Virus record (IMG/VR): IMGVR_UViG_2541047878_000001
Span: 1-44,521 of that record
DNA length: 44,521 nucleotides
Direction: 5' to 3' (one strand)
Origin: a virus
Taxonomy: Duplodnaviria > Heunggongvirae > Uroviricota > Caudoviricetes
A model generated the notes under the pieces. It searched no databases and was not told the DNA's origin. It saw only the letters and a list, made by a program, of their open reading frames with translations. This document shows positions 8,277 through 43,105 of the stretch, piece after piece. The number at the start of each line of letters is the position of its first letter. The stretch's first letter is position 1. The position numbers and the translations under genes were made by a program.

Positions 8277-8314
8277 AGGTAGAAGATTACTCGCATCACA
8301 TACGCTAGTCATTT

Positions 8315-8350: not shown

Positions 8351-8382
8351 CATCATCCCTCTGAATTTCAGAGGAGAAAGGT

Positions 8383-8646
8383 ATGTCATCTCAAAACTAC
8401 ACAGAGAAAGCAGTAAAAGCTGCGGGAAAATCTTTATCTGAAGTAGCCCGTCACTTTGGTTTTAAGTCCACTCAATCCGTCGCTAATTGGGTAATTAACA
8501 ATCAAGTCCCGTCAGAACGGGTTTTACAACTTTGTGAGTTGGGAAACTGGTCCGTGACCCCTCATGAACTGCGTCCTGATATTTACCCCAATCCAAATGA
8601 TGGATTACCTGAGTGCTATTCAAAAGTTAGCGGTTCAGCTGCGTAA
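8383..8646 (+). CDS. Cro/YdaS-like HTH regulator (87 aa)
   Basis: Divergent from cI, preceded by GAGGAGAAAGG RBS; HTH-like segment LSEVARHFGFKSTQSVANWV. Confidence 0.6.
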   Translation: MSSQNYTEKAVKAAGKSLSEVARHFGFKSTQSVANWVINNQVPSERVLQLCELGNWSVTPHELRPDIYPNPNDGLPECYSKVSGSAA

Positions 8647-8675
8647 ACGTAACCACAGAAACGAGGAGTTAACCG

Positions 8676-9232
8676 TGGGTAAGCATCACTGGAAAGTAGA
8701 AAAACAGCCTGAGTGGTACGTGAAAGCTGTCAGAAAAACTATCGCAGCGTTGCCGGGGGGTTACGCTGAAGCTGCTGACTGGCTGGACGTAACAGAGAAC
8801 GCATTATTTAACCGCCTTCGTGCCGATGGCGATCAGATTTTCCCGCTGGGATGGGCAATGATTTTGCAACGTGCTGGTGGAACTCACTTCATTGCTGACG
8901 CTGTGGCGCAGTCTGCAAATGGCATCTTTGTGTCTCTTCCTGACGTCGAGGATGTGGACAATGCCGATATTAACCAGCGTCTGCTGGAAGTCATTGAACA
9001 GATCGGCAGTTATTCCAGACAGATTCGTTCAGCAATTGAAGACGGTGTAGTGGAACCGCATGAGAAGACAGCAATTAACGACGAGCTGTATCTCTCAATT
9101 TCGAAGCTGCAGGAGCATGCAGCACTTGTCTACAAAATTTTTTGCATTTCAGAAAGTAATGACGCCCGCGAGTGTGCAGCTCCGGGCGTCGTGGCGTCGA
9201 TTGCTTCTGGTTGTGGAGAAACTAACGCATGA
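8676..9232 (+). CDS. CII-like early regulatory protein (putative)
   Basis: ORF after cro; start placed at GTG preceded by GAGGAG. Family assignment is from position and memory only. Confidence 0.4.
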
Positions 9233-9567
9233 ACAGTTTAACAACACACTACCGTCGCTCGCAACTGATTGCGCTTCCTGTACCGGGTGGAAAAGCGAAG
9301 GTGGAATATTGCTATGCAGTGAATGTACCAGGTGACAGGGAAATTGTAACCCACAGCTTTGCAGAGTGGGCTGTGGGGGATTTCAACCGGCAGAAGGAGA
9401 CAGTCCTTTGCGACAAGTTAACCGCTGGTTCAAAGATCACTACGGAGTGCCCGTCAGAGTCATTCGTTGGGAGCCGGAAACACAACGGGTTATCTACCTC
9501 CGCGAAGGTTATGAGCATGAATGCTTCAGTCCGCTCGAACAGTTTCATCGTAAATTCAGGGAAATAG
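9229..9567 (+). CDS. Hypothetical early protein (112 aa)
   Basis: ORF with ATGA overlap to the upstream gene. Confidence 0.4.
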
Positions 9568-9576
9568 AGGTCGGTC

Positions 9577-10518
9577 ATGAGCACTAAATTAACCGGCTAT
9601 GTATGGGATGGTTGCGCTGCATCAGGCATGAAGTTATCCAGCGTGGCAATTATGGCCCGCCTGGCTGATTTCAGTAATGACGAAGGTGTGTGCTGGCCAT
9701 CAATTGAAACCATTGCCCGTCAGATTGGCGCGGGGATGAGTACCGTCAGAACGGCTATCGCACGGCTGGAAGCAGAAGGCTGGTTAACGCGTAAGGCGCG
9801 TCGCCAGGGTAACCGCAATGCGTCGAATGTTTATCAGCTTAACGTTGCGAAGCTTCAGGCAGCGGCATTTTCTCAACTGTCAGATTCTGACCCGTCAAAA
9901 TCTGACGCATCAAAATCTGACCCGTCAAAATTTGATGCGTCGAAATCTGGCAAAAAAGCGGGTTTTCACCCGTCAGAATCTGGCGGGGATCCGTCAGTAA
10001 AATCAAAACATGATCCGTCAGATAAAAAAACTTCTCGTCCGGACGCTTCGCAACCGGACACGCAGACGGCTGAACAGGAGTTTTTAACTCGCCATCCTGA
10101 TGCGGTTGTATTCAGCCCTAAAAAGCGCCAGTGGGGAACGCAGGATGATTTGACCTGCGCACAGTGGCTCTGGAAAAAAATCATCGCCCTGTACGAGCAG
10201 GCCGCCGAATGTGACGGCGAGGTGGTTCGTCCCAAAGAACCGAACTGGACAGCCTGGGCAAACGAAATTCGCCTGATGTGTGTGCAGGATGGTCGTACTC
10301 ACAAACAAATCTGCGAGATGTACAGCCGCGTCAGCCGCGATCCGTTCTGGTGCCGTAACGTGCTCAGCCCGTCGAAGCTGCGGGAAAAATGGGATGAGCT
10401 TTCCCTGCGCTTATCGCCGTCCGTCAGCACGTACACCGAAAAACGCGAAGACCCGTACTTCAAAGCCAGTTACGACAACGTGGACTACAGCCAGATCCCG
10501 GCAGGATTCAGGGGGTGA
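9577..10518 (+). CDS. Replication initiator with N-terminal wHTH (lambda O-like role), iterons inside the gene
   Basis: N-terminal helix-turn-helix (SIETIARQIGAGMSTVRTAIARLEAEGW) and an internal SKSD/PSK repetitive linker encoded by tandem DNA repeats. Confidence 0.6.
   Translation: MSTKLTGYVWDGCAASGMKLSSVAIMARLADFSNDEGVCWPSIETIARQIGAGMSTVRTAIARLEAEGWLTRKARRQGNRNASNVYQLNVAKLQAAAFSQLSDSDPSKSDASKSDPSKFDASKSGKKAGFHPSESGGDPSVKSKHDPSDKKTSRPDASQPDTQTAEQEFLTRHPDAVVFSPKKRQWGTQDDLTCAQWLWKKIIALYEQAAECDGEVVRPKEPNWTAWANEIRLMCVQDGRTHKQICEMYSRVSRDPFWCRNVLSPSKLREKWDELSLRLSPSVSTYTEKREDPYFKASYDNVDYSQIPAGFRG
9880..10035. repeat. Iteron array (putative replication origin) embedded in the initiator gene
   Basis: Four tandem 15-bp units TCTGAC(C/G)C(G/A)TCAAAA at 9886-9945, further CCGTCAGAA-like copies to about 10020, then an A-rich tract (GATAAAAAAA). 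Confidence 0.55.
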
Positions 10519-11009
10519 TCATGAGTCTTTTGAATGAAGTTCAGAAATACATTGAAGCCCATCCGGGGTGTACTTCCGGAGACATTGCGGATGCTTTTGC
10601 AGGTTACTCACGGCAGCGCGTTCTGCAGTCAGCAAGCAAGTTACGTCAGAGTGGTCGTGTGGCTCACCGTTGTGAAGGGGATACACGCAGACATTTCCCG
10701 CGCCTGACTGAGAGAGCGCAGGAGGCGGAACCGCAACCAGTTCGTGAAACCAGACCTGTGCGCAATTTCTATGTCGGCACTAACGACCCGCGGGAGATTT
10801 TGTGCCTGACCCGCCAGGCGGAAGAACTGGAGTCCAGGGGCTTATACCGTCGTGCTGCAACGGTGTGGATGGCGGCATTCCGTGAAAGCCACTCCCAGCA
10901 AGAGCGAAACAATTTTCTGGCGCGTCGTGAGCGGTGCTTACGGAAAAGCAGCAAGCGCGCTGCATCGGGTGAAGAGTGGTATCTGTCAGGGAATTACGTG
11001 GGGGCTTAA
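10515..11009 (+). CDS. PerC-domain transcriptional regulator-like protein (Pch/PerC family C-terminal region)
   Basis: C-terminal AEELESRGLYRRAATVW...RRERCLRK matches the remembered PerC/Pch signature; N-terminal half unassigned. Confidence 0.45.
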   Translation: MIMSLLNEVQKYIEAHPGCTSGDIADAFAGYSRQRVLQSASKLRQSGRVAHRCEGDTRRHFPRLTERAQEAEPQPVRETRPVRNFYVGTNDPREILCLTRQAEELESRGLYRRAATVWMAAFRESHSQQERNNFLARRERCLRKSSKRAASGEEWYLSGNYVGA

Positions 11010-11662
11010 TGAGTAATAAATATTGCCAGGCGCTGGTGGAACTGCGGAACAAACCAGCCCATGAACTGAAGGAAGTGGGCGATCAGTGGCGCACGCCGGA
11101 CAACATTTTCTGGGGAATTAACACCCTGTTTGGCCCGTTTGTTCTGGATCTGTTCACTGACGGTGATAACGCCAAATGTGCCGCGTATTACACGGCGGAA
11201 GACAACGCGCTGGCGCATGACTGGTCAGAACGTCTTGCGGAGCTTAAAGGTGCTGCCTTTGGTAATCCCCCATACAGCCGCGCCAGTCAGCATGAGGGGC
11301 AATACATCACCGGCATGCGTTACATCATGAAGCATGCCAGTGCCATGCGTGATAAAGGCGGGCGCTATGTTTTCCTGATCAAAGCTGCCACCAGCGAAGT
11401 GTGGTGGCCGGAAAATGCAGATCATATTGCTTTTATTCGCGGGCGTATTGGTTTTGAACTGCCTGTCTGGTTTATCCCGAAAGACGAGAAGCAGGTACCG
11501 ACAGGCGCTTTCTTCGCTGGTGCTATTGCTGTTTTCGACAAGACCTGGAAGGGACCGGCAATCAGCTACATCGGGCGCGATGAACTTGAGGCATGTGGTG
11601 AGGCCTTTCTGGCGCAGGTTCGCCAGCAGGCGGAAAAACTGGTCAGGGAGATGGCGGCATGA
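11010..11662 (+). CDS. Phage Dam-type N6-adenine DNA methyltransferase
   Basis: Catalytic NPPY motif (FGNPPYSR) and DxWxTP N-terminal region; start at ATG preceded by GGGGG. Confidence 0.7.
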
Positions 11663-11985
11663 CGACGTTAACTCAATGCCAGCAGCAGGTGCTGGATATG
11701 CTGATTTCTTACCAGAAAGAGCGTGGCTTTCCGCCAACCAATCAGGAGGTGGCAACCATGCTGGGATATCGTTCAGTGAATGCAGCGGTGGAGCATCTTC
11801 GCGCACTGGAGAAAAAAGGCGTCATCACGATAAAGCGTGGTGTGGCCCGGGGGATAACGCTTCATACCGCGGTGAAGGACGACGACAGCGAGGCGGTCGG
11901 GATTATCCGCTCACTGCTTGCCGGTGAGGAAAACGCCAGGCTGCGTGCAGCCCACTGGTTACATGAGAGGGGTCTGAAAGTATGA
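11659..11985 (+). CDS. LexA N-terminal DNA-binding-domain-like protein (no peptidase domain)
   Basis: 108 aa resembling the LexA winged-HTH (QQQVLDMLISYQKERGFPPTNQEVATMLGYRSVNAAVEHLRALEKKGVI). Confidence 0.45.
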   Translation: MTTLTQCQQQVLDMLISYQKERGFPPTNQEVATMLGYRSVNAAVEHLRALEKKGVITIKRGVARGITLHTAVKDDDSEAVGIIRSLLAGEENARLRAAHWLHERGLKV

Positions 11986-12371
11986 AGCTGATTCTGCCTT
12001 TCCCGCCCAGCGTGAACACGTACTGGCGACACCCCAACAAAGGGGCGTTTGCAGGTAAGAGCCTGATAAGCGCGGCGGGGCGCAAATTCCAGAGCGCGGC
12101 GTGTGCAGCAATAGTTGAGCAGTTACGTCGTCTGCCAAAACCAACGTCGGCACCTGCTTCAGTGGAGATCGTGTTGTTTCCTCCGGATAACCGGATCCGC
12201 GATCTGGACAACTATAACAAGGCGCTGTTTGACGCCCTGACCCACGCGGGTGTGTGGGAAGACGACAGTCAGGTGAAAAGAATGCTGGTGGAGTGGGGAC
12301 CGGTTATCCCGGAAGGGAAGGTCGAGATCACTATCAGTAAGTACGAGAAAACGGCGGGTGCAGCCGCCTGA
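11982..12371 (+). CDS. rusA: RusA-family Holliday junction resolvase
   Basis: Typical RusA length and motifs (FPPSVNTYW..., DLDNYNKALFDALTHAGVWEDDSQV). Confidence 0.8.
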   Translation: MKLILPFPPSVNTYWRHPNKGAFAGKSLISAAGRKFQSAACAAIVEQLRRLPKPTSAPASVEIVLFPPDNRIRDLDNYNKALFDALTHAGVWEDDSQVKRMLVEWGPVIPEGKVEITISKYEKTAGAAA

Positions 12372-12390
12372 TTAAGAGGAGAAACGAAGT

Positions 12391-13188
12391 ATGAATAATC
12401 TGATGGTCATTGATGGTATTGAAGTTCGTCGTGATGCTTATGGGCGTTACAGCCTGAACGATCTGCACAGGGCTGCCGGTTCTCTGGATAAGCATAAGCC
12501 TGCATTCTGGCTCCGCAATGAGCAAACTGAGCGTTTAATAAGCGAGTTGCAGATTTGCAACTCGGTCAATATAGAGCCAGTTAACGTTATTCGTGGCGGA
12601 AATAACCAGGGGACGTATGTCTGCAAAGAACTGGTGTATGCCTATGCAATGTGGATCAGCCCGTCATTCCATCTGAAGGTGATCCGTACTTTCGACATGG
12701 TAACCAGCGCACCGGAAAAATTATCCGGACAGGCTGCTGACAAGATGCAGGCTGGTGTGATTCTGCTGGACTTTATGCGCCGGGAGTTAAATCTGTCTAA
12801 CTCTTCAGTGCTTGGAGCCTGTCAGAAACTTCAGGAGGCTGTTGGCTTACCGAATCTGGCACCGCGCTATGCCATTGATGCTCCTGCTGACGCGCCTGAT
12901 GGCTCAAGCCGCCCCACGCTGTCACTGAGTGCACTGCTGAAGCAGTATGGTATCCGCCTGACAGCTAATCAGGCATATCACCAGATGGTGAAGCTGGGGA
13001 TCGTCGAGCAGCGCGAACGATACAGCCGTACCGCGATTAACAACATCAAAAAATTCTGGTCGCTGACGGCGAAAGGCTGCATGTTCGGCAAGAACATCAC
13101 CAGTCCCGCAAATCCGCGCGAGACGCAGCCGCACTTTTTCGAATCCCGATTCCCTGAGCTGTTAAAGCTGCTCGATACCGTTCATTGA
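12391..13188 (+). CDS. KilA-N domain protein (antirepressor-like)
   Basis: N-terminal KilA-N-like region (VIDGIEVRRDAYGRYSLNDLHRAAG...KPAFWLRNEQTERLISEL). Confidence 0.6.
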   Translation: MNNLMVIDGIEVRRDAYGRYSLNDLHRAAGSLDKHKPAFWLRNEQTERLISELQICNSVNIEPVNVIRGGNNQGTYVCKELVYAYAMWISPSFHLKVIRTFDMVTSAPEKLSGQAADKMQAGVILLDFMRRELNLSNSSVLGACQKLQEAVGLPNLAPRYAIDAPADAPDGSSRPTLSLSALLKQYGIRLTANQAYHQMVKLGIVEQRERYSRTAINNIKKFWSLTAKGCMFGKNITSPANPRETQPHFFESRFPELLKLLDTVH

Positions 13189-13189
13189 G

Positions 13190-14185
13190 GTGACCGTGAG
13201 AGCACTACTGACCCCTGAAATTGCCCCGCGTATGGGGATCGTATTGTTCAGACCAGGTTCAGAGCTGATGCCCCTGTTTATGCAGGGGCGTGTCCTGCTG
13301 GAGCCTGAGCCGGAACGTTATTCATCTTTTGCCAGTGGTGCCGTTCCGGCGGCATCACAACCGCTGGCGGATGATCCTGCCGTTCGGGCCGTGTTCCGCA
13401 ATGAGGCAGTGATCCGTCGTGCTGGTGGAGTGGAATGTCTTGAAAGCTGGTTACTTCGTGAAAAAGGCTGCCAATGGCCTCATTCCGACTGGCACAGCGA
13501 GAACATGACCACAATGCGACACGCGCCGGGCGCAATCCGTCTGTGCTGGCACTGCGATAACCAGCTGCGCGATCAGTTCACGGAACGGCTGGAATCAATG
13601 GCAACGGATAACTGTGCCCGCTGGGTGTTGTCTGTTGTGCGTCGGGATCTCGGTTTTGATGACAGTCACGTTGTGACAATGCCGGAACTGTGCTGGTGGC
13701 TGATTCGTAATGACCTGGCGGATGCCTTACCGGAAAGTGCAGCCCGTAAGGCACTGAGATTACCGAAGCCTGTTGTGCCGTCTGTCACCCGGGAAAGTGA
13801 CCTTGTGCCTTCGATTCCTGCCACCAGCATCATCCAGGATAAGGCGAAAAAGGTGCTGGCGCTGAAAGTGGATCCGGAGTCGCCGGAGTCTTTTATGTTA
13901 CGCCCAAAACGTCGCCGCTGGGTTAATGAAAAGTACACGCGCTGGGTTAAGACACAGCCGTGTGCATGTTGTGGAAAGCCTGCTGATGATCCCCACCACC
14001 TGATAGGTCACGGTCAGGGTGGAATGGGAACAAAAGCGCATGACCTCTTTGTGTTGCCTTTGTGCAGAAAGCATCACGACGAGCTGCATGCGGATACCGT
14101 GGCATTTGAAGAGAAGTATGGCTCCCAGCTGGAGCTGATATTTCGTTTTATCGATCGTGCGCTGGCAACTGGCGTGCTGGCCTGA
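13190..14185 (+). CDS. DUF968-type lambdoid protein with C-terminal Cys/His cluster
   Basis: C-terminal PCACCG...HHLIGHG...CRKHHDELH cluster typical of lambdoid DUF968 proteins. Confidence 0.5.
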   Translation: MTVRALLTPEIAPRMGIVLFRPGSELMPLFMQGRVLLEPEPERYSSFASGAVPAASQPLADDPAVRAVFRNEAVIRRAGGVECLESWLLREKGCQWPHSDWHSENMTTMRHAPGAIRLCWHCDNQLRDQFTERLESMATDNCARWVLSVVRRDLGFDDSHVVTMPELCWWLIRNDLADALPESAARKALRLPKPVVPSVTRESDLVPSIPATSIIQDKAKKVLALKVDPESPESFMLRPKRRRWVNEKYTRWVKTQPCACCGKPADDPHHLIGHGQGGMGTKAHDLFVLPLCRKHHDELHADTVAFEEKYGSQLELIFRFIDRALATGVLA

Positions 14186-14187
14186 TT

Positions 14188-14568
14188 TTGTGGAGAAAGT
14201 TGATGCGTGATATTCAGATGGTTCTTGAGCGTTGGGGGGCATGGGCGGCGAGTGACAGTTCAGGAGTAGACTATTCGCCTATAGCTGCTGGGTTTAAGGG
14301 ACTTCTTCCCTATACAAGCAAAACACGTCAGGCTTGTTCAGATAGTGATGCATTAATTATTGAAGGTTGTCTTGCTCGTCTAAAGCAAAAAAGGCCAGAC
14401 GAACATTCGCTTCTTGTTGCCCATTACCTATACGGTATCTCTAAAAGAAAGCTCGCCAAAGCTCGTAAAAAGGATGAGAAACTAATACGCATTGAGATAC
14501 AGATGGCTGAGGGGTTTATTGAAGGCTGTCTCTCAATGCTTGATCTTTGTTTGGAAATGGACCAATAG
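14188..14568 (+). CDS. Late-gene antiterminator Q (phage 82/21 type, putative)
   Basis: 126-aa ORF at the canonical position before the lysis genes, with sequence pattern remembered for the small Q family. Confidence 0.55.
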   Translation: MWRKLMRDIQMVLERWGAWAASDSSGVDYSPIAAGFKGLLPYTSKTRQACSDSDALIIEGCLARLKQKRPDEHSLLVAHYLYGISKRKLAKARKKDEKLIRIEIQMAEGFIEGCLSMLDLCLEMDQ

Positions 14569-14591
14569 ACTACCAGAATAGCAACTGCCGC

Positions 14592-15014
14592 TCAGCTTTG
14601 CGGATCGGCAGTTTCTGATGGTGTAATGTTACGCGCAGATGTTTCAAGTATAGATTCCCTTCCGATTGATACCAAAATTTCGATTGTTCTTGCTTTAGCC
14701 TGCATCAATGTTGATTTTATTTCAGGACTTAAGTGGTCAGATCGTAACTGCTTCTCAATCTCAGCCAAATCACGCTTGCATTTTGCTCTTTTGGCTGCGT
14801 CTTCTGGAGATTCGAAACCATGCCTCGAAATGAACCAATTCATGACGTAAGTTAAAGTTGCCGCAACACCCGGTACTAATGCGTAGGCTACAGTTCGCCA
14901 CACGCTATTAGGGTCGGTTAAAATCGCGCTAACAAGAACACTTAAAATTGCTCCCCAACCACCAGTTGAAAGGGTAGCTTTTCCTGTGCTTAGACCTTTA
15001 GTTTGAGAATTCAT
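14592..15014 (-). CDS. Cassette gene 3: two-TM membrane protein with coiled-coil tail (140 aa)
   Basis: Two hydrophobic helices followed by a charged helical C-terminus; 4-nt overlap with the upstream gene. Confidence 0.5.
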   Translation of the reverse strand: MNSQTKGLSTGKATLSTGGWGAILSVLVSAILTDPNSVWRTVAYALVPGVAATLTYVMNWFISRHGFESPEDAAKRAKCKRDLAEIEKQLRSDHLSPEIKSTLMQAKARTIEILVSIGRESILETSARNITPSETADPQS

Positions 15015-15280
15015 TTTCGTTTTGAATTCTCCGCAATTGCCTCATCAATGAGGGTTGTTAGCATTTTTCCCTTTTTACTTGGAACTTTTATTACTAGCGT
15101 TTTGGTCACTCCGGAATCTTCATCGTGATATCGGAATTCGAAGACTTTTGTAGGGAATAGTCGACGCCAAAGCAAGGCTGACGCTGAATAGCAAAAACGA
15201 CTAAAGGCAGGGATGATCATTATCACCCCTATCCAGAAGATCAGTTGTGCTATCTGCATGTTTAGTGTCACTTTTGTCAA
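15011..15280 (-). CDS. Cassette gene 2: small single-TM membrane protein (89 aa)
   Basis: N-terminal hydrophobic helix (IAQLIFWIGVIMIIPAF); ATGA-type overlaps on both sides. Confidence 0.45.
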   Translation of the reverse strand: MTKVTLNMQIAQLIFWIGVIMIIPAFSRFCYSASALLWRRLFPTKVFEFRYHDEDSGVTKTLVIKVPSKKGKMLTTLIDEAIAENSKRK

Positions 15281-16146
15281 GCCTCAGCAGGGCGTTTTCG
15301 TTTTACTTTGGTTATAGCATACTTGGTTGTGGCATTTCGCGCAGTGAAAGTTTTTATAGTTTTTAGCTCAACAACAAACAAATCTTCTTTTGTAAAACTG
15401 ATGATTCCGTTTTGAACTTGGTGTATAAACAACTGATCTTCAAAGGTAACAGCATGCTCTTCGCCTAAATAATCGATTCTCCAACCCTTTGTACCCTCGA
15501 AGTTGATCTGTACGAATCTAACATTGACTTCTTCTACAGACTCTTCTTTTTCAAGTAGTGTGCCTCTAGGCAGCGGTTTGATCTCTTCGGTTTCACTTCC
15601 TTCAAGACGAACGACTTCTTCGCCTTCATCATTCAGCACCTTAAATACTGCTCCTTGTTTGCCGTCTAATGGTGCACGAACTACATTCACAAGGGCATCA
15701 CGGACTTCTGGATCTGTTACTAACTTAGCCACTGAGTCATGGCAAACAATTTCTTCCCCTTCAAGCTCAAGAACAGATTCTTCTGTTCCTGCCCGTTTTG
15801 TTACCGAAATTACTTTCTTGCTGCCCAGTTGGCGGATTAGTGATAATGCTGGAGCTCCAATAGTAGCCCCGGCTATCCCTGTTAGGCCAATCACTTTTGC
15901 TACGTCGACGGCATGAGGAACAAGCTCCATCATCGTATAGGATACGCCGAGTGATCCCGCTTCAGCTGGATTAGTAACCATTAACTTAACGGTTTGTTGG
16001 CCGTCATTAAGTCTTTTATCAGCTGCTGATATTAAATCTGCCATCGAACCTATGGAAATGCTTAATGTTTTGGCATCAATTTTATGCTGTGCTAATTCAT
16101 TATCCTCTGCATCGTAGAAGATCTGAAAAGAAGTTGTTTTAGTCAC
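15277..16146 (-). CDS. Cassette gene 1: soluble acidic protein of unknown function (289 aa)
   Basis: Long ORF opposite to the phage late direction, no TM segment, no motif I recognise; first gene of a three-gene coupled operon. Confidence 0.55.
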   Translation of the reverse strand: MTKTTSFQIFYDAEDNELAQHKIDAKTLSISIGSMADLISAADKRLNDGQQTVKLMVTNPAEAGSLGVSYTMMELVPHAVDVAKVIGLTGIAGATIGAPALSLIRQLGSKKVISVTKRAGTEESVLELEGEEIVCHDSVAKLVTDPEVRDALVNVVRAPLDGKQGAVFKVLNDEGEEVVRLEGSETEEIKPLPRGTLLEKEESVEEVNVRFVQINFEGTKGWRIDYLGEEHAVTFEDQLFIHQVQNGIISFTKEDLFVVELKTIKTFTARNATTKYAITKVKRKRPAEA

Positions 16147-16272
16147 TCTTTGCTCGCTATGTCTTGATTTTTTTCCATAAAATACCTTTTTTTGGTGTAA
16201 AAAACATTATCGCGGTCCGCAAAAATTGCGTTACTGTGTTAAGAGTGATTACTTCGTCACACAGCTTAAACC

Positions 16273-16300
16273 CGCCGTCGAGCGGGTTTTTTTATACCTG
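16273..16300 (+). terminator. Rho-independent terminator (candidate tR'-like)
   Basis: Hairpin AAACCCGC-CGTCGA-GCGGGTTT followed by a run of seven T. Confidence 0.5.
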
Positions 16301-16416
16301 TAAACCTGGTGCAGTACGGTAAACACGCTGGTGGTAGTGAATACTGACTTTTTATCTTGCTGGCTTTTTAGACAAGAGTTATTGGTATGTCATGTTAACC
16401 ATGAAGGTAAAAAGAC

Positions 16417-16611
16417 ATGCTAAAACAGCAAGATATGACAGAAACGGCGAAAGTTGTTTTTAATGAATTAAACGGCAAACCGGCAACAGTCGGGGAGATA
16501 GCACAAAACACATACCTTTCACGCGAACGCTGTCAGTTAATACTGACCCAGCTGGTTATGGCGGGGCTGGCAGATTACCAGTTCGGCTGTTACAGACGCC
16601 TTCAGCAATGA
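16417..16611 (+). CDS. Small hypothetical protein (64 aa)
   Basis: Short ORF preceded by an AGGT-containing region. Confidence 0.3.
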   Translation: MLKQQDMTETAKVVFNELNGKPATVGEIAQNTYLSRERCQLILTQLVMAGLADYQFGCYRRLQQ

Positions 16612-16760
16612 AGGGCTTTTAATTTGTGAAAATGGGCGGCTGGTGGGTGTTGGTAGCACCTGCCAGCCATTCGCTCATGCTTACTGGTCACAAGCGAACC
16701 ATGGCCCACTGCTTTAGCGCAAAAGCAGAGTGAGCCTACCAGAGTTACGCTTACTGATCC

Positions 16761-17813
16761 ATGAAAAATACTGTAAAAATAAACAGTGTTGATTTAATCA
16801 ACGCTGATTGCCTGCATTTTATTCAGTCCCTGCCTGATGATTCCATTGACCTGATAGTTACCGATCCGCCGTACTTCAAAGTGAAGCCCAACGGTTGGGA
16901 CAATCAGTGGAAAGGGGACGAAGATTACCTTAAGTGGCTGGACCACTGTCTGGCTCAGTTCTGGCGGGTGCTGAAACCTGCCGGAAGCCTTTACCTGTTC
17001 TGTGGACATCGCCTGGCATCTGATATCGAGATCATGATGCGTGAACGTTTCAACGTGCTTAACCATATCATCTGGGCGAAGCCGTCCGGACGATGGAACG
17101 GGTGTAATAAAGAAAGCCTGCGGGCATATTTCCCCGCTACAGAGCGCGTTCTGTTTGCTGAACATTACCAGGGGCCATATCGCGGCAAAAGTGACGGCTA
17201 TGCGGAAAAAGAAAGGGAACTCAAACAGCACATAATGGCACCGCTGATATCGTATTTCAGGGATGCACGTGCCGAACTGGGTATAACGGCAAAACAGATT
17301 GCCGAAGCCACTGGTAAGAAAAACATGGTTTCCCACTGGTTTGGTGCCAGTCAGTGGCAGTTGCCGAATGAGGCTGACTACCGGAAGTTGCAGGCACTGT
17401 TTTCCCGTATAGCGGCAGAGAAGTTTCAGGAACAACAACTGGAACAGACACACCACCAGCTGGTGGCATCTTATGATTCACTGAATCGCAAATATTCTGA
17501 ATTGCTGGATGAGTTTAAATCTCTCCGGCGCTATTTCTCCGTATCAGTCTCCGTGCCTTATACCGATGTCTGGACGCATAAGCCCGTTCAGTTCTACCCG
17601 GGTAAACATCCGTGCGAGAAACCGGCGGATATGCTCCGGCAAATAATCAATGCCAGTAGTCGACCTGGTGATCTGGTTGCTGATTTCTTTATGGGATCCG
17701 GTTCCACAATAAAAGCAGCAATGGCGCTGGGGCGTCGGGCGTTAGGTGTTGAACTTGAGTCAGAGCGGTTTAATCAGACGGTGAAAGAGGTAAGTGAACT
17801 GGTGGGGAAATAA
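16761..17813 (+). CDS. Orphan DNA methyltransferase (N6-adenine/N4-cytosine family, DPPY motif)
   Basis: SIDLIVTDPPYF catalytic motif and C-terminal FFMGSGST SAM-binding motif; no adjacent restriction endonuclease ORF. Confidence 0.8.
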   Translation: MKNTVKINSVDLINADCLHFIQSLPDDSIDLIVTDPPYFKVKPNGWDNQWKGDEDYLKWLDHCLAQFWRVLKPAGSLYLFCGHRLASDIEIMMRERFNVLNHIIWAKPSGRWNGCNKESLRAYFPATERVLFAEHYQGPYRGKSDGYAEKERELKQHIMAPLISYFRDARAELGITAKQIAEATGKKNMVSHWFGASQWQLPNEADYRKLQALFSRIAAEKFQEQQLEQTHHQLVASYDSLNRKYSELLDEFKSLRRYFSVSVSVPYTDVWTHKPVQFYPGKHPCEKPADMLRQIINASSRPGDLVADFFMGSGSTIKAAMALGRRALGVELESERFNQTVKEVSELVGK

Positions 17814-17889
17814 TTCTGGTGGCCACGTTGCGTGGCCTTTTTATTTCCAACACAGCACCCGCAAATATCGCGAGGTGAGAGATGACGAA

Positions 17890-18225
17890 ATGCCTCATAA
17901 CCCAAATACCTGGCCGGACTGGCTGGAGTTGTTTCAGAGCTGGTGGCGTGGAGACACACCGCTGGGTGCAGTGATTATGTCGATCGTTATGGCTGGTTTG
18001 CGCATCGCCTATTTTGGCGGTCGCGGTGGCTGGAAGCGAAAAACGCTCGAGATTTTGCTATGTGGCGCTCTGACGCTGACCTTTGCATCCGCTCTTGAGT
18101 ATGTCGGATGGCCTAAATCGCTTTCTGTTGCCATTGGTGGTGGCGTGGGGCTGATCGGTGTCGATGCTATTCGTGGGGCTGCAATGCGAGTAATCGGTAA
18201 CAAATTTGGTAGCTCGAAGGAGTAA
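17890..18225 (+). CDS. Holin (lambda S-like)
   Basis: About 111 aa with three hydrophobic segments and a charged C-terminus, immediately upstream of the endolysin; start placed at the internal ATG (MPHNPN) rather than the track ORF start. Confidence 0.65.
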   Translation: MPHNPNTWPDWLELFQSWWRGDTPLGAVIMSIVMAGLRIAYFGGRGGWKRKTLEILLCGALTLTFASALEYVGWPKSLSVAIGGGVGLIGVDAIRGAAMRVIGNKFGSSKE

Positions 18226-18228
18226 TTT

Positions 18229-18705
18229 ATGCAGGCACTAAATTCCCAGCGTAAAGCTTTCCTGGATATGGTGGCATGGTCAGAAGGAACGGATAACGGG
18301 CGACAACCGACACGTAACCACGGTTATGATGTTATTGTTGGTGGCGAACTGTTCACTGATTACTCCGATCACCCTCGCAAACTTGTCACGCTAAACCCCA
18401 AACTCAAATCAACAGCCGCCGGACGTTACCAGCTTCTTTCACGCTGGTGGGATGCTTACCGTAAACAGCTTGGCCTGGAAGATTTTTCTCCAGAAAGCCA
18501 GGACGCTGTAGCTCTGCAGCAGATTAAAGAGCGTGGTGCTTTACCGATGATTGACCGCGGCAGTATTCGTCAGGCAATCGACCGTTGCAGCAATATCTGG
18601 GCGTCGTTACCTGGTGCAGGTTACGGTCAGTATGAACATAAAATCGGTGACCTGATTGCCCGATTTAAAAAAGCTGGTGGGGTAGTAAATGAAGCTGAGA
18701 TATAA
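18229..18705 (+). CDS. Endolysin (lambda R-like lytic transglycosylase, 158 aa)
   Basis: Same length as lambda R, with the conserved N-terminal catalytic region (AFLDMVAWSEGTDNG). Confidence 0.8.
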   Translation: MQALNSQRKAFLDMVAWSEGTDNGRQPTRNHGYDVIVGGELFTDYSDHPRKLVTLNPKLKSTAAGRYQLLSRWWDAYRKQLGLEDFSPESQDAVALQQIKERGALPMIDRGSIRQAIDRCSNIWASLPGAGYGQYEHKIGDLIARFKKAGGVVNEAEI

Positions 18706-19081
18706 GCTGGTTATTGTTGCCTTCGTTGTTACCGTCATTGGTTCCTTCATCTGGTCTGCCGGGCATTACTACAGCAAATATCAGCACGAAAAGGAGCGTG
18801 CTGATGAGGCTGTACGAAATGCTGAATCAGCAACTGCCATTACCCGTAACGTTCTGCAATCACAGCAAATCATCAATACAGTTATAGAGGCTAACCAGCA
18901 TGCAAAACAGCAGATCGCACTGGAGTCACAGAGAACCGAGGAAGATATCAAAGTGGCTGTTGCGGATGATGATTGTGCTTCACGTCATGTGCCTGCTGCC
19001 GCTGCTGACCGGTTGCGGAAGTACGCGAACAGTTTACGTACCGATTCCGGCGGTACCGTTGCCAGCAAGCCTGACGACTGA
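18689..19081 (+). CDS. Rz-like inner-membrane spanin
   Basis: N-terminal TM helix followed by a charged coiled-coil region; overlaps the endolysin 3' end. Confidence 0.55.
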   Translation: MKLRYKLVIVAFVVTVIGSFIWSAGHYYSKYQHEKERADEAVRNAESATAITRNVLQSQQIINTVIEANQHAKQQIALESQRTEEDIKVAVADDDCASRHVPAAAADRLRKYANSLRTDSGGTVASKPDD

Positions 19082-19238
19082 AACTCCCCAGCCAGTCATT
19101 CCCGAGCCGCTGACCTATGGGGCCAGTCTGGATCTGAATGTGAGCCTGCTTTCGGCGTTGGGACAATGCAATATTGACAAATCGGGGATTCGAAGTATCG
19201 AGATGCGCCGTAACGCTTTGCTGGCAGCAGGCAAATAG
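18966..19238 (+). CDS. Rz1-like outer-membrane lipoprotein spanin (overlapped arrangement)
   Basis: Lipobox LLTGC after a short signal peptide, proline-rich mature part, in the +1 frame of Rz and extending beyond its stop. Confidence 0.45.
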   Translation: MMIVLHVMCLLPLLTGCGSTRTVYVPIPAVPLPASLTTETPQPVIPEPLTYGASLDLNVSLLSALGQCNIDKSGIRSIEMRRNALLAAGK

Positions 19239-19264
19239 TCCGGACAAAGAACAGGAATATATTT

Positions 19265-34976: not shown

Positions 34977-36021
34977 ATTTCAGCGCCCGACGCTGGCAGA
35001 AAATATCAGTATGCTCCGTAACGATTTATTCGCCAGGCTGGACGTCAGCAACACGCTCCGGCGCATGGATGAAGACGTGCGGGCAAAGGTGTATGCGGCG
35101 GCGCTGCATACGGTCTACGGGTACATCGATTATCTGGCAATGAATATGCTGCCTGACCTGTGCGATGAGTCCTGGCTGGCGCGACATGCTGCGATGAAAC
35201 GGTGTCCGCGCAAGGGGGCCACGGCTGCCAGCGGGTATATGCGCTGGGAAGGTGTCAGCGATGGCCTGAAGGTGACTGCCGGGAGCGTGATTCAGCGCGA
35301 TGACCTGGTTCAGTACACGGCAACTGCCGATGCAACCAGCTCCGGTGGTGTCCTGCGTGTGCCGATCACTTGCTCAACTACAGGCGCGGTCGGTAACGCT
35401 GACGACGGTACGGCATTAATCCTGGTCACGCCGGTGAATGGTCTGCCGTCTTCCGGTGTTGCAGATACCCTGACTGGCGGATTCGATACTGAAGATCTGG
35501 AAACGTGGCGCGCCCGCGTCATTGAGCGGTATTACTGGACGCCGCAGGGCGGGGCTGACGGGGACTATGTCGTCTGGGCTAAAGAAGTGCCCGGCATTAC
35601 CCGCGCATGGACATACCGTCACTGGATGGGAACGGGGACTGTCGGTGTGATGATTGCCGGCAGTGACCTGATTAATCCCATTCCGGAAGAATCAACGGAA
35701 ACGGCGGCAAGACAACATATCGGGCCACTGGCCCCGGTGGCAGGCTCTGATTTGTATGTGTTCAGGCCGGTGGCACATACGGTGGATTTTCATATCCGTG
35801 TGACGCCGGACACACCGGAAATACGGGCTGCCATTACCGCGGAGTTGCGTTCGTTCCTGCTGCGTGATGGTTATCCGCAGGGAGAACTGAAGGTATCGCG
35901 TATCAGTGAGGCGATTTCCGGTGCGAACGGGGAATACAGCCATCAGTTGCTTGCACCGGCAGACAATATCTCCATTGCAAAAAATGAACTGGCGGTACTG
36001 GGGACGATTTCATGGACGTGA
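34963..36021 (+). CDS. Baseplate J-like protein
   Basis: 352 aa at the conserved position. Confidence 0.65.
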
Positions 36022-36596
36022 CAAACGATGATTACATCCGTCTGTTGTCGGCACTGTTGCCCCCCGGTCCGGCGTGGTCAGCCAGCGATCCGGCGATTGC
36101 CGGTGCGGCACCGTCATTAACCCGCGTTCATCAGCGTGCGGATGCCCTTATGCGGGAGCTGGATCCGCGCACCACCAATGAACTGATAAACCGCTGGGAG
36201 CGTCTGTGCGGTCTGCCGGATGAATGTATTCCCGCAGGGACACAGACCCTTCGCCAGCGTCAGCAACGGCTGGATGCGAAGGTTAACCTGGTGGGCGGCA
36301 TCAACGAGGATTTTTATCTTGCACAGCTTGCTGCCCTGGGCAGACCAGATGCCACCATCACGCGATACGACAAAAGCACTTTCACCTGCTCATCGGCCTG
36401 TACTGACGCGGTGAATGCGCCGGAATGGCGGTATTACTGGCAGGTCAACATGCCAGCCGCCACCAACACCACCTGGATGACATGTGGCGATCCCTGTGAT
36501 TCCGCACTGCGTATCTGGGGCGACACCGTTGTCGAGTGTGTGCTTAACAAACTCTGCCCGTCGCATACCTACGTAATTTTTAAATATCCGGAGTAA
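36012..36596 (+). CDS. Tail protein I-like (Mu gp48-like)
   Basis: 194 aa immediately upstream of the tail fiber gene. Confidence 0.5.
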
Positions 36597-36599: not shown

Positions 36600-37199
36600 A
36601 TGCATCGTATAGACACGAAAACCGCGCAGAAGGATAAGTTCGGCGCGGGTAAGAACGGTTTTACCCGTGGTAACCCCCAGACTGGCACGCCTGCCACCGA
36701 TCTGGATGATGACTACTTTGACATGTTGCAGGAAGAACTTTGTAGCGTTGTTGAGGCATCCGGTGCCAGTCTGGAGAAGGCGCGGCACGACCAGTTGCTT
36801 ACCGCGCTTCGTGCTCTGCTGTTAAGCCGCAAGAATCCGTTTGGTGATATCAAATCGGATGGCACGGTGAAAACGGCTCTCGAAAACCTTGGTTTAAGAG
36901 CAAGCGGGCAGTACACCGATAATTTGTTATTTACAGGTCCTGATGGTCTTAAGATTCAGGTGTTTCGCCGGACGCTCGCAAATTTGACTACTGTCGGTGT
37001 AGTAAATTCTGTGCCAGTGACTTTCCCTGTCCCGTTCCCTGTTAATTGCTGGGGCGTTTTTTCTACCAAATTAACATGGGTTCAGATAACTAACTCATGC
37101 GAGTGGGTAAGCAATACAGGATTTACCGCTCAGGTCATGATGAATATTGCTGTAAATACAAACACCTCAGACGCTATGTTTTTAGCTATAGGATATTAA
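36600..37199 (+). CDS. Tail fiber protein (constant N-terminus fused to the currently expressed variable C-terminus)
   Basis: Short fibre ORF crossing the left recombination site at about 36890; followed by a Tfa gene. Confidence 0.65.
36878..36900. repeat. Left inversion crossover site (gix/hix/pix-like)
   Basis: TCTCGAAAACC-TT-GGTTTAAGAG, imperfect dyad resembling hixL (TTCTTGAAAACCAAGGTTTTTGATAA); encodes ALENLGL in the fibre frame. Confidence 0.55.
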
Positions 37200-37200
37200 T

Positions 37201-37641
37201 ATGAATCGTTTTGTGTTCAGTCCATCTGAGTCCCGTTTTTATGCCATCGAGTGGCAGGCTGATTATGTTGATAATAATTGTTGGCCGCATGATGCCATTA
37301 ACGTTAGTGACAGCATTTATTATGAGTTTTCCGGCACTCCCCCTACAGGTAAGCAACTTATAACTTTAAATAACATGCCATCATGGGGTGATATTCCTCC
37401 ACCTACACGAGAAGAATTAATTGTCACCGCTGATGTCGAGAAGCAAAAAAGAATAGATTTAGCCAATGATTACATGAACGGTAAGCAATGGCTTGGTAAA
37501 GCAGCTATTGGTCGTCTGAAAGGTGAGGAACTGGCACAATATAATTTGTGGCTGGATTATCTGGACGCACTGGAGCTGGTCGATACCGCCAGTGCGCCAG
37601 ATATTGAATGGCCTACGCCTCCGGCAGTTCAGGCCAGATGA
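37201..37641 (+). CDS. Tail fiber assembly chaperone (Tfa), current orientation
   Basis: 146 aa directly downstream of the fibre gene; C-terminal Tfa-like motif (EWPTPPA). Confidence 0.6.
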   Translation: MNRFVFSPSESRFYAIEWQADYVDNNCWPHDAINVSDSIYYEFSGTPPTGKQLITLNNMPSWGDIPPPTREELIVTADVEKQKRIDLANDYMNGKQWLGKAAIGRLKGEELAQYNLWLDYLDALELVDTASAPDIEWPTPPAVQAR

Positions 37642-38215
37642 CATCTGGCGCGGTGCTGGTATCAGTTGCCGTCACCGCGTCAATGTAATCCAGTACAGCG
37701 TTAAGGCTGGTTGTTTCTGCCTGCGTCAGTTTACGTCCGGCCTGCAATTTCAGCTGAATCAGACTGATTGAAGCCATTGCAGTATCAATCAGTGACTGGC
37801 GCTGTGCTTCTGCTGCATCTACTGCGGCGCTATGCTGTGCTTCGGTATCCGTCACCCATTTCTCACCATCCCATTTATCGTATGGCGTTAACGGGGCGAT
37901 AGTGGTTGTATTATCAGGGTAATCACCCGGAGCTGTGATTTCTTTTGATTCTCCTGTTTCGGTGCTAAAGACGATTTCACCGCGATGGTCTGGCACATAT
38001 TCCCATGAGTTAAAATCTACAGATCGGCAGATTGCATAACCAGCTTTGTATGTGCCAGGGGCATCTAAACAGGAATATGCAGGGATACCGACACCAACGG
38101 CAAGATATTCAGTTGATGTGGAAATATATTCCCGTGTTTCGCCATCATAGTTATAGACGGTAATATTCCCCGCCTTTGTAGCAATAAACTCGCTATTTAA
38201 TACAGCGTTATCCAT
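37613..38215 (-). CDS. Tail fiber assembly chaperone (Tfa), alternate orientation
   Basis: 200 aa convergent with the other Tfa, with similar C-terminus (DVIWPELPEA). Confidence 0.6.
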   Translation of the reverse strand: MDNAVLNSEFIATKAGNITVYNYDGETREYISTSTEYLAVGVGIPAYSCLDAPGTYKAGYAICRSVDFNSWEYVPDHRGEIVFSTETGESKEITAPGDYPDNTTTIAPLTPYDKWDGEKWVTDTEAQHSAAVDAAEAQRQSLIDTAMASISLIQLKLQAGRKLTQAETTSLNAVLDYIDAVTATDTSTAPDVIWPELPEA

Positions 38216-38716
38216 TATGCAGCCCTCACGATATAGTTAAATGCAATATTCCGTGGACGGGTTTCATTTATCCCATATGCTGTTGTTCTCTGATTCCCGA
38301 CAAAATATCCATTTGGATTAGAAGATACAGAATAATCATCAAAATCAAGTGGGCTATCAGCACCCGGCGTCAGGCTTGCAATATATCCTCTTCCCATAAC
38401 TTCTAATGCTGGTATTTCTTTTGTACGATAATCACTAACTCTGAAGAGCTGCCCTTGGTGGGTGTGTGATTCCACTCCTCCATTCTGAAGACTTAGCAAG
38501 GCACGTACAGCATCAATACCACGCCCGTCATCCCAGCCACGAATAAACTCACCACGTAAATCAGGCAATTTATTTGTCGGATAAGCCTTTGCCAGTTCCG
38601 GGTATTCTTCAGCAGAAAAAGCGGCACCGTTGCATTTCAGCCAGCCTGTTGGCGGAGTGGCTGAAGGCCACGGAACAGGCACCCCAACCGGTAATGCAGA
38701 GCCTTCTCCCAAACCA
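38215..38716 (-). CDS. Alternate tail-fibre variable C-terminal segment (promoterless until inversion)
   Basis: Minus-strand ORF beginning at the right crossover site; after inversion ...ENLG would fuse in frame to LGEGSALPVG.... Confidence 0.55.
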
Positions 38717-38729
38717 ACATTTATGAAAA
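38704..38729. repeat. Right inversion crossover site (gix/hix/pix-like)
   Basis: Minus-strand reading CATAAATG-TT-GGTTTGGGAGAA, sharing the TTGGTTT core with the left site in inverted orientation. Confidence 0.5.
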
Positions 38730-38783
38730 TGCAGAAATAACGAGCAAATGGCATCATTCCTGCTTTTGTCAGGGGGCGCTACC

Positions 38784-39338
38784 ATGCTTATTGGCTATGT
38801 ACGCGTATCAACAAATGACCAGAACACCGATCTACAACGTAATGCGCTGAACTGTGCAGGATGTGAGCTGATTTTTGAAGACAAGATAAGCGGTACAAAG
38901 TCCGACAGACCAGGACTGAAAAAGCTGCTCAGGACATTATCGGCAGGTGACACGCTGGTGGTCTGGAAACTGGACCGACTGGGGCGCAGTATGCGGCATC
39001 TTGTCGTGCTGGTGGAGGAGTTGCGCGAACGAGGCATCAACTTTCGTAGTCTGACGGATTCAATTGATACCAGTACCCCAATGGGGCGCTTTTTCTTTCA
39101 TGTGATGGGTGCCCTGGCTGAAATGGAGCGTGAACTGATTGTTGAACGAACAAAAGCTGGACTGGAAGCTGCTCGCGCACAGGGACGAATTGGTGGACGT
39201 CGCCCCAAACTTACACCAGAACAATGGGAGCAGGCCGGACGATTAATTGCAGCAGGAATTCCTCGCCAGAAGGTAGCGATCATCTATGATGTTGGTGTAT
39301 CGACACTGTATAAGATGTTTCCGGTCGGAGATAAATGA
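38784..39338 (+). CDS. Serine DNA invertase (Gin/Pin/Hin/Cin family)
   Basis: N-terminal catalytic region MLIGYVRVSTNDQNTDLQ and C-terminal HTH; start at ATG after AGGGGG; adjacent to the invertible fibre segment. Confidence 0.85.
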   Translation: MLIGYVRVSTNDQNTDLQRNALNCAGCELIFEDKISGTKSDRPGLKKLLRTLSAGDTLVVWKLDRLGRSMRHLVVLVEELRERGINFRSLTDSIDTSTPMGRFFFHVMGALAEMERELIVERTKAGLEAARAQGRIGGRRPKLTPEQWEQAGRLIAAGIPRQKVAIIYDVGVSTLYKMFPVGDK

Positions 39339-39377
39339 AACCGCAGGCTCGTCGTATGCAAGATCGTGCTGCGGTTT
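39338..39377. repeat. Repeat family copy a (imperfect hairpin; also terminator-like)
   Basis: AAACCGCAGGCTCGTCGTATGCAAGATCGTGCTGCGGTTT; about 89 percent identical to the core of copy b by hand alignment. Confidence 0.5.
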
Positions 39378-39396: not shown

Positions 39397-40266
<870 letters not shown>

Positions 40267-40356: not shown

Positions 40357-40435
40357 AAAAACCGCAGGCACGTTGTATGCAAGAACGTGCTGTGGCTGGC
40401 TGGTGAACTTCCAATAGTGCGAATATTGAATGATG
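40357..40435. repeat. Repeat family copy b
   Basis: AAAACCGCAGGCACGTTGTATGCAAGAACGTGCTGTGGCTGG... shares its left core with copy a and about 65 bp (about 86 percent identity by hand) with copy c. Confidence 0.5.
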
Positions 40436-40761: not shown

Positions 40762-40862
40762 TTGACAAAACCTAAGGTAAGCGTATACTCACAACCGCCA
40801 AGTTTTTCGTATTTGCTTACGATAGGAGAAGCCAGCGACAGCGGTTCGCTGGCTTTTTCGTT
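40762..40862 (+). ncRNA. Candidate small RNA: near-consensus sigma-70 promoter followed about 45 nt later by an intrinsic terminator
   Basis: TTGACA, 17-bp spacer, TATACT at 40762-40789, then hairpin GCCAGCGA-CAGCGGT-TCGCTGGC plus TTTTT at about 40833-40860. Confidence 0.3.
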
Positions 40863-41394
40863 ATCTTTTTGCATTTTTTCTCATCCAAGTTTCAGCCGCT
40901 TGTTGACTGACACCAAATGTTTTGCTTATATCTTCAACAGTCATTGTGGGCAAAACTAGTCTTGAGTCAATTAAGAAGTGGCTTGCAAAAACATCTGCTT
41001 GCCATTCGCTGTCTTCATAGATTTTATGCCCTCCACTAGTCTTATTACGTGCATAGATACTTTGATTGCGATGCATGACTAAATGACCAAGTTCATGCGC
41101 AACAGTGAATCTCGCATGGTTCTCACCATTGCACACTGCATCGTAAACAGATCGCTGTAAAACAATTTTGTTCTTATCTGGATAAGTCACTGCATAGCGT
41201 TTGGGCAGTTCATGATCTTCAACAATTTCTAGCTCAATGCTTTCTGAGGCCATAAGACCTTCTAGTAATACATCCAGTCTCAGATATGTGTGATTTGATA
41301 TCTGAAGAACGTCTCTCAGACGATGAGCGTATGATTTAATCATGCTGGTGCTGAGAGGTGAAACGCGATGGCCAAGTTCTCGTTTCGCAATCAT
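40861..41394 (-). CDS. ImmA/IrrE-family zinc metallopeptidase
   Basis: HEXXH motif (FTVAHELGHLVMH) in a 177-aa protein immediately downstream of, and coupled to, an XRE-family HTH gene. Confidence 0.7.
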   Translation of the reverse strand: MIAKRELGHRVSPLSTSMIKSYAHRLRDVLQISNHTYLRLDVLLEGLMASESIELEIVEDHELPKRYAVTYPDKNKIVLQRSVYDAVCNGENHARFTVAHELGHLVMHRNQSIYARNKTSGGHKIYEDSEWQADVFASHFLIDSRLVLPTMTVEDISKTFGVSQQAAETWMRKNAKR

Positions 41395-41397: not shown

Positions 41398-41775
41398 TCA
41401 GTCCTTTAACATTTTATTAAGCTTATCGAGTTGCTCTGGACTCAGGTCCTTAAATTTACGAGCAAAAACAAGCATTAGTTCTTTGTTCTGCTCATTTGCA
41501 TCCGACATATCAACCTTAATGGACGGTTGAGAAATCTCTGCCTGTTTCTTGAGATTGATGATGTCTTGTCCGCTAAGCTCAAAAGTTGTTGCAATCGTAT
41601 TTACTAATGAGTCCGGTATAGCTCTTTTGCCTAATTCAATGGCGGATAAGTAAGCCGAACTAACGCCTAACAGATCAGCCATATTTTTGAGCACCATACC
41701 CCGGTCTATTCTCATTTTTCTGAGAGTCTTACCAAAGCTAGTTACCATGTTGCGCCTCCTACAATCCATGCTCAC
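41398..41775 (-). CDS. XRE-family HTH transcriptional regulator (ImmR-like)
   Basis: HTH (LRKMRIDRGMVLKNMADLLGVSSAYLSAIELGKR) at the N-terminus; upstream partner of the ImmA-like gene. Confidence 0.7.
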   Translation of the reverse strand: MSMDCRRRNMVTSFGKTLRKMRIDRGMVLKNMADLLGVSSAYLSAIELGKRAIPDSLVNTIATTFELSGQDIINLKKQAEISQPSIKVDMSDANEQNKELMLVFARKFKDLSPEQLDKLNKMLKD

Positions 41776-43007: not shown

Positions 43008-43040
43008 TGGTGGAGCTGGCGGGAGTTGAACCCGCTGACA
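43008..43040 (-). other. tmRNA (ssrA)-like 3'-terminal fragment (T-arm plus acceptor plus CCA), candidate att-site remnant
   Basis: Minus strand reads GTCAGCGGGTTCAACTCCCGCCAGCTCCACCA, matching the 3' end of enterobacterial tmRNA as I recall it; no tmRNA body or tRNA 5' half is present. Confidence 0.35.
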
Positions 43041-43105
43041 CGTCGTATGCAAGAACTTGCTGCGGCTGGATGGTGGACTTTCGATAGTGCGAGTATTGAA
43101 TGATT
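43031..43105. repeat. Repeat family copy c
   Basis: CGCTGACACGTCGTATGCAAGAACTTGCTGCGGCTGGATGGTGGACTTTCGATAGTGCGAGTATTGAATGATT, about 86 percent identical to copy b over 65 bp (hand alignment). Confidence 0.5.

Follow-up and report, generated by a model that had tools for sequence, protein, structure and literature searches.

The window analyzed in this study, i.e., the whole stretch of 44,521 nucleotides (nt) of the caudoviricete record IMGVR_UViG_2541047878_000001, harbors a tail-fiber segment that is framed by two crossover sites of the Din-invertase type and adjoined by the serine invertase gene pin. The segment carries two alternative fiber tips, and its opposite orientation was found in a complete Escherichia coli genome, so that this locus very probably represents a Pin-type inversion switch for phage host range. 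The features of the locus are listed below by position, with (+) and (−) denoting the strand (aa, amino acids; ORF, open reading frame; Tfa, tail-fiber assembly protein).

36012–36596 (+): YmfQ/Mu gp48-like baseplate gene, directly upstream of the fiber gene (Pfam Phage_Mu_Gp48, E 7.9e-26)
36600–36888 (+): constant fiber N-terminus, aa 1–96 (...KTALEN-LG), outside the invertible segment and within ORF 36600–37199
36877–36902: left crossover site (pixL-type), CTCTCGAAAACC-TT-GGTTTAAGAGCA, core TT at 36889–36890
36889–38717: invertible segment of 1829 nt, from core dinucleotide to core dinucleotide, used for in silico inversion
36891–37199 (+): variable fiber C-terminus A (LRASGQ...AIGY), fused to the constant part (Pfam Gp53-like_C, E 3.6e-7)
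37201–37641 (+): tail-fiber assembly gene, variant A (TfaA; Pfam Caudo_TAP, E 5e-26)
37613–38215 (−): tail-fiber assembly gene, variant B, a TfaE orthologue (Pfam Caudo_TAP, E 7e-33; 90.5% aa identity to K-12 TfaE)
38215–38715 (−): variable fiber C-terminus B (LGEGSALPVG...IVRAA), StfE-like and facing pin (Pfam phage tail Collar, E 6e-16)
38704–38729: right crossover site (pixR-type), TTCTCCCAAACC-AA-CATTTATGAAAA, core AA at 38716–38717
38718–38757 (−): 13-codon leader MMPFARYFCIFIN, outside the segment and within ORF 38215–38757
38784–39338 (+): pin, serine DNA invertase of 184 aa (Pfam Resolvase, E 1.3e-51; HTH_7, E 1.4e-14)
38802–38873 (+): candidate recombinational (Fis) enhancer, in a stretch homologous to the enhancer annotated in P1 (cin nt 19–90)

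The complete 44.5-kb window was scanned with the Din-invertase consensus TTCTCNNAAACCNNGGTTTNNGANAA, allowing up to three mismatches. Exactly two 26-mers were recovered, each deviating from the consensus at two to three positions; being dyads, they match on both strands. Dinucleotide-preserving shuffles yielded a mean of 0.01 matches to the site pattern, and none of the 100 shuffles reached four. The two sites lie in inverted orientation, and both cores read TT if the opposite strand is taken for the right site, as inversion requires. Their spacing amounts to 1827 nt and is equal in the window and in the e14 element of E. coli K-12. The left site occupies codons 93–101 of the fiber gene, where the N-L-G-L junction is specified by its AAACC-TT-GGTTT core; this junction motif also occurs in StfP of K-12, orf21 of phage SfV, a P2-type fiber, and S of phage Mu. 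In its inner half, the left site reads GGTTTAAGAGCA and agrees at 11 of 12 positions with GGTTTAAGAGAA, the counterpart in P1 cix; K-12 pix has GGTTTGGGAGAA instead. Exact sequence common to both sites of the window is limited to the seven contiguous bases TTGGTTT, because the left inner half is cix-like and does not represent the K-12 pix version. A third site or quasi site was found in the window neither by the consensus scan (≤3 mismatches) nor by a looser half-site scan. Multiple inversions via extra sites, as in the Min system of p15B, were rejected accordingly, as these two scans revealed two sites only.

Between the sites, two convergent cassettes were identified, each consisting of a fiber C-terminus and its own assembly gene. 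The constant N-terminus preceding them is nearly identical in K-12 StfP and SfV orf21. Tip A is 98% identical to the C-terminus of the P2-type fiber in AR_0085, and tip B shares 60% aa identity with K-12 StfE. Pfam places the two tips in separate families (Gp53-like_C versus Collar), which fits different receptors but is no proof thereof. On the pin side, the leader turns cassette B into an ATG-initiated, StfE-type ORF of 180 aa (38215–38757, −). In silico inversion of positions 36889–38717 kept the reading frame and introduced neither a frameshift nor a stop codon. In the window state, the junction reads ...KTALENLG/LRASGQ... and belongs to a fiber of 199 aa, and in the inverted state it reads ...KTALENLG/LGEGSALPVG... 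and belongs to a fiber of 263 aa. From the orientation, tip A, which is now fused to the constant part, is predicted to be the expressed tip, and tip B to be currently silent. The assembly genes converge with an overlap of 29 nt (37613–37641), and the same 29-nt overlap is present in K-12 e14. The region of the overlap (37582–37663) also features an imperfect inverted repeat of 33 nt (73% complementary), which exists because the conserved C-termini of the Tfa proteins (APDIEWP and APDVIWP) are encoded on opposite strands.

Pin shares 96.7% aa identity with K-12 PinE, 82.1% with P1 Cin, and 79.3% with Mu Gin. Its catalytic motif YVRVST is intact, and both GYVRVSTNDQ (containing Ser9) and VVWKLDRLGRS are unchanged in the alignment with Gin, Cin, and PinE. 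Moreover, the pin DNA sequence is identical to that of pinE in E. coli FDAARGOS_1284. The candidate enhancer within the 5' part of pin is located 85–157 nt from the right site and is identical to the homologous stretches of K-12 pinE, cin, and gin at 70, 58, and 55 of 72 positions, respectively. Scanning for promoters and terminators around pin and the leader ORF gave counts at or below the shuffled expectation, with no site before pin or the leader, and PADLOC assigned neither Pin nor the StfE-like ORF to a defense family. These results agree well with the original prediction. It had placed gix/hix-like inverted dyads at about 36878–36900 and 38704–38729, which the scan locates within 1–2 nt and identifies as hix/gix/cix/pix-type 26-mers. 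They had been proposed to lie inside fiber frames, so that inversion would exchange the C-terminus (LRASGQ versus LGEGSALPVG) together with the cognate Tfa; in silico inversion and the Pfam assignments both accord with this. The serine invertase gene noted beside the switch corresponds to pin at 38784–39338, with its Resolvase and HTH_7 domains and 96.7% identity to PinE.

The locus was searched in both orientations against 5,426 complete E. coli genomes, the in silico inverted query comprising 2901 nt. A match to 80% or more of the query was obtained for 13 genomes in the orientation of the window and for 10 in the inverted one. For the window orientation, no exact match was obtained among the 5,426 genomes, the best reaching 98.4%. 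The inverted query was matched from end to end by E. coli FDAARGOS_1284, with a reported identity of 100.0%. Compared to the window, the 1829-nt segment of FDAARGOS_1284 is reverse-complemented with a single mismatch (37493), its right flank is identical over 5.8 kb, and its left flank is 99.6% identical over 17.6 kb. At both of its junctions, this genome displays precisely the recombinant sequences that had been predicted, CTCTCGAAAACCTTGGTTTGGGAGAA and TGCTCTTAAACCAACATTTATGAAAA. The same behavior was seen in two pairs of sister isolates. Over 12.9 kb, three distant single-nucleotide polymorphisms and an exact inversion separate Z1323PEC0011 from Z1323PEC0013, both obtained from dog and carrying the same site sequences as the window within an e14-like remnant. 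ZH48 and ZH49, obtained from pig and carrying the same cassette pair within a P2-like prophage, differ over 8.3 kb by an exact inversion as the sole difference. In all three comparisons (FDAARGOS_1284, the Z1323PEC pair, and ZH48/ZH49), the breakpoints fall within the shared TTGGTTT/AAACCAA core.

In the public annotation produced by the prokaryotic genome annotation pipeline (PGAP), the fusion of the constant part with tip B is labeled as a pseudogene with a 'missing C-terminus' in FDAARGOS_1284 and Z1323PEC0013, which carry the inverted orientation (L002 20101–20622; L004 5101–5622). This call is an annotation artefact of the switch, the ORF being intact with a length of 263 aa.

Taken together, the locus is, with high confidence, an inversion switch for phage host range operated by Pin, a member of the Din family comprising Hin, Gin, Cin, and Pin; it corresponds to the P-segment system of e14 and resides in an SfV-like prophage at thrW. 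Invertible tail-fiber segments of the e14/Pin type are known and well-described biology. The original prediction had invoked the mechanism of the Mu G, P1 C, and e14 P segments, and our results support this and assign the switch to the e14/Pin branch, based on synteny and the identity to PinE. They also refine the proposal insofar as the switch resides outside e14 itself and contains one non-K-12 cassette. The occurrence of only one orientation, which had been named as the outcome speaking against a switch, was not observed, the opposite one being present in FDAARGOS_1284 and within the two pairs of sister isolates.

For invertases of the Hin type, the assembly of an invertasome from two 26-bp sites and a distant enhancer bound by Fis has been described (PMC3798978); the reaction requires supercoiled DNA and Fis, and strands are exchanged by subunit rotation (PMC3798978). 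Reproducible phase variation of the e14 P segment was reported for clonal K-12 cultures (PMC4272514). Furthermore, quantitative PCR revealed that about 30% of the K-12 e14 segments are inverted in the wild type, that PinE and PinQ drive the inversion, and that the double mutant is locked (PMC12529663). By analogy to this family, dimers of Pin would bind the two 26-bp sites of the window, and the bound sites would form the invertasome together with a Fis-occupied enhancer within the 5' region of pin, matching its location in the invertase genes of the Gin, Cin, and Pin systems. Both sites would then be cut at the central TT/AA dinucleotide, and the ends would be rotated by 180 degrees and religated. 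The late operon is accordingly proposed to read from the constant 96-aa N-terminus into either cassette A (gp53-like tip and TfaA) or cassette B (collar-domain StfE-like tip and TfaE-like chaperone), transcription presumably covering whichever cassette faces it. A lysogen population would thus be mixed, and induced virions would probably carry one of two receptor specificities.

Several observations weigh against this interpretation. The window itself represents a single assembly in one orientation, and flipping was shown in relatives and not in this strain. The two sites of the window are less alike (7 bp exact) than the K-12 pair, and the outer half of the right site differs from K-12 pixR by one change beside the core (CGTTT to CATTT). 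The sites of K-12 e14 were described to form a 16-bp perfect inverted repeat (PMC12529663). Both the CATTT variant and the low likeness of the sites recur in Z1323PEC0011 and Z1323PEC0013, i.e., in isolates that differ by inversion. Moreover, the enhancer was deduced from homology inside a coding sequence, where conservation is no independent evidence. An excess of synonymous conservation in the candidate enhancer amounted to a weak trend and was not significant for pin versus gin or cin: comparing pin codons 7–30 with the rest of the gene gave p values of 0.81 against gin, 0.23 against cin, and 0.02 against the invertase of phage SKA5, and the comparison of gin with cin gave 0.03, all of these values being based on few sequences.

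A phase-variable function in host defense, acting instead of or besides the determination of host range, was considered as an alternative. The pin-proximal ORF composed of leader and cassette would in that case be expressed in the lysogen and block the adsorption of other phages. The switch would then serve the defense of the host in addition to the host range of the phage, and after inversion the leader would be joined to the gp53-like tip. There is a precedent for this in K-12, where inversion of the e14 P segment was reported to create a chimeric StfE2 protein that blocks adsorption of T2 (PMC12529663), and the window keeps a leader ORF of this type that starts with ATG (MMPFARYFCIFINVG, compared to the K-12 StfE start MPFACYFFIFINVG). 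The cargo located just downstream of pin is a defense gene (PD-T4-3), and the switch stands at the front of what looks like a hotspot of defense cargo. However, the tip of K-12 StfE2 is the variable part of StfP, and this part is replaced by another cassette in the window (no blastn alignment for 36896–37485; 56% identity of the whole fibers). No promoter-like site above background precedes the leader ATG, the AGGA motif found there is poorly spaced, and the switch terminates an apparently complete tail operon, where a role in host range is straightforward. A defense function is therefore regarded as unlikely.

Even less probable is a fossil or locked switch, in which the architecture has been kept but Pin or one of the sites is inactive and the fiber is fixed as variant A. 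The deviation of the right outer half-site from K-12 beside the core and the seven contiguous identical bases shared by the sites would be compatible with such a state, and the left site of SfV, which lacks both partner and invertase, shows that fossils of this kind exist. Conversely, pin is intact, carries the catalytic motif, and is identical at the DNA level to its counterpart in FDAARGOS_1284, where the segment has the opposite orientation. An exact inversion distinguishes isolates whose site sequences are those of the window, and both cassettes represent uninterrupted ORFs. Hardly any credence is given to RecA-dependent homologous recombination between inverted repeats, or to two dyads that arose by chance and have no relation to the invertase. 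Inverted repeats can recombine if they are long enough, but the exact identity of 7 bp (TTGGTTT) is far below the need of RecA, and the breakpoints are positioned exactly in the site core in three independent comparisons. RecA-mediated inversion was excluded because of these two findings; in addition, K-12 pinE pinQ mutants are locked (PMC12529663). Chance dyads are further disfavored by the 0.01 occurrences expected for the site pattern. The Pin-operated host-range switch hence remains the preferred explanation.

The carrier of the switch is apparently a complete SfV-like myovirus prophage of about 44 kb, integrated at the tRNA-Thr gene thrW. The window starts with a ProA-like ORF (1–1254), followed by tRNA-Thr(CGT), i.e., thrW (1369–1444). 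A 48-nt attachment (att) repeat of the tRNA 3' end (window 1399–1446) is found again in the FDAARGOS_1284 locus, roughly 650 nt beyond the right end of the window, and the window therefore holds almost the whole prophage of about 44 kb. The region between the att ends comprises an integrase-side early region, lysis genes, terminase, an HK97-type head, and a Mu-like contractile tail. Assignment of the prophage to e14 at icd was rejected, as the left flank consists of the ProA-like ORF and thrW, an icd-like repeat is missing, and the modules for head, tail, and lysis are complete, compared to the defective element of about 15 kb. The early and regulatory left part (window 1–19260) had no match in the compared part of the FDAARGOS_1284 prophage. 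The lysis region (17866–19194) is just 88% identical to that genome, and identity amounts to 99.6–100% from 19264 onwards. This divergence of the left parts is typical lambdoid mosaicism.

Directly downstream of pin, the single-gene anti-phage system PD-T4-3 was identified (39397–40221, −; PADLOC, E 8e-140; Pfam LEM-3-like GIY-YIG). The same slot is occupied by mcrA in K-12 e14 and by PD-T4-3, a cytosine methyltransferase, and a type II restriction enzyme in the Z1323PEC strains, and it looks like a variable hotspot for defense cargo. A 37-nt element with hairpin potential, AAACCGCAGGCTCGTCGTATGCAAGATCGTGCTGCGG, is present in three copies (39338–39374, 40359–40395, and 43029–43065) flanking the cargo genes after pin. 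Copies were also detected after the SKA5 invertase gene and in the Z1323PEC loci, and the element may be a cassette boundary or a terminator module. The window furthermore encodes an ImmA/IrrE metallopeptidase (40861–41394, −) and an XRE helix-turn-helix (HTH) protein (41398–41775, −). This pair resembles CapP and CapH, regulators of the cyclic-oligonucleotide-based anti-phage signaling system (CBASS; PADLOC, E 5e-15 and 6e-11); genes for a BRO-N protein and an S1 peptidase come next. No CBASS genes were found adjoining the pair.

Beyond annotation, the importance of these results is small, the locus being a host-range switch of a kind found in textbooks. Which orientation is captured by an assembly of such a prophage is arbitrary, and automatic annotation mislabels the fused fiber as a pseudogene in one of the two. 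The mosaic boundary at the crossover site is of relevance for the prediction of host ranges of temperate phages and for fiber engineering.

Among the known systems, the e14 P segment of K-12 shares the same gene order, ymfQ-stfP(ycfK)-tfaP-tfaE-stfE-pinE. At the DNA level, identity to e14 amounts to 96.7% through ymfQ and the constant fiber part up to position 36895, to 90.1% for tfaE, and to 93.7% for the 5' end of stfE together with pin. No blastn alignment was obtained for positions 36896–37485 (cassette A) and 38266–38511 (the middle of tip B); despite the blastn gap in cassette A, the whole fiber proteins (window versus K-12 StfP) align at 56%. The outer half of the left site agrees fully with its e14 counterpart, and the right site differs by one nucleotide. 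In contrast to the window, e14 is a remnant of about 15 kb at icd and not an SfV-like prophage of about 44 kb at thrW, and it carries mcrA downstream of pinE, where PD-T4-3 is located in the window. The promoter-proximal cassette of the window represents another allele with a cix-like inner half-site, so that the inverted repeat formed by the two sites is much less perfect.

The Mu G and P1 C segments belong to the same mechanism class, with a constant Sc part and alternative Sv-U and Sv'-U' cassettes. Their 26-bp sites, gix and cix, share the ...AAACC NN GGTTT... core with the window, including the NLGL junction as in Mu S. The core dinucleotide of the window is TT, like that of cix and pix, whereas gix features TC. 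The fibers encoded in the window are considerably shorter (199 and 263 aa) than Mu S (504 aa) and P1 S (988 aa), and the same applies to the segment, with 1.8 kb compared to about 3 kb in Mu and 4.2 kb in P1. Moreover, cin of P1 lies on the opposite side, its 3' end being at cixL.

The serotype-converting Shigella phages SfV, SfI, and SfII have the thrW-type lifestyle and a short fiber with the same constant N-terminus in common with the window. Their tail modules are 97.5–98% identical to that of the window at the DNA level, and this homology ends at 36905–36907, i.e., at the left site. In SfV, the left site is intact (L009 1949–1974) and has the same sequence as in K-12 e14, but only one fiber tip and one tfa gene are present, without a second site or an invertase, so that SfV has no switch. 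Its left 26-mer is an orphan site at a mosaic joint. The isolated phage SKA5 exhibits the same fiber/tfa/tfa/fiber/invertase layout as the window. P2-like prophages carry the same A/B cassette pair and an 85%-identical invertase, their homology to the window starting at the site (36886). The crossover site is thus a mosaic joint at which fiber-tip modules move between SfV/e14-like and P2-like phages, a known theme. The hybrid pair of pix- and cix-type sites points to capture of cassettes between Pin- and Cin-type systems, and inversion evidently proceeds with sites that have just seven contiguous bases in common.

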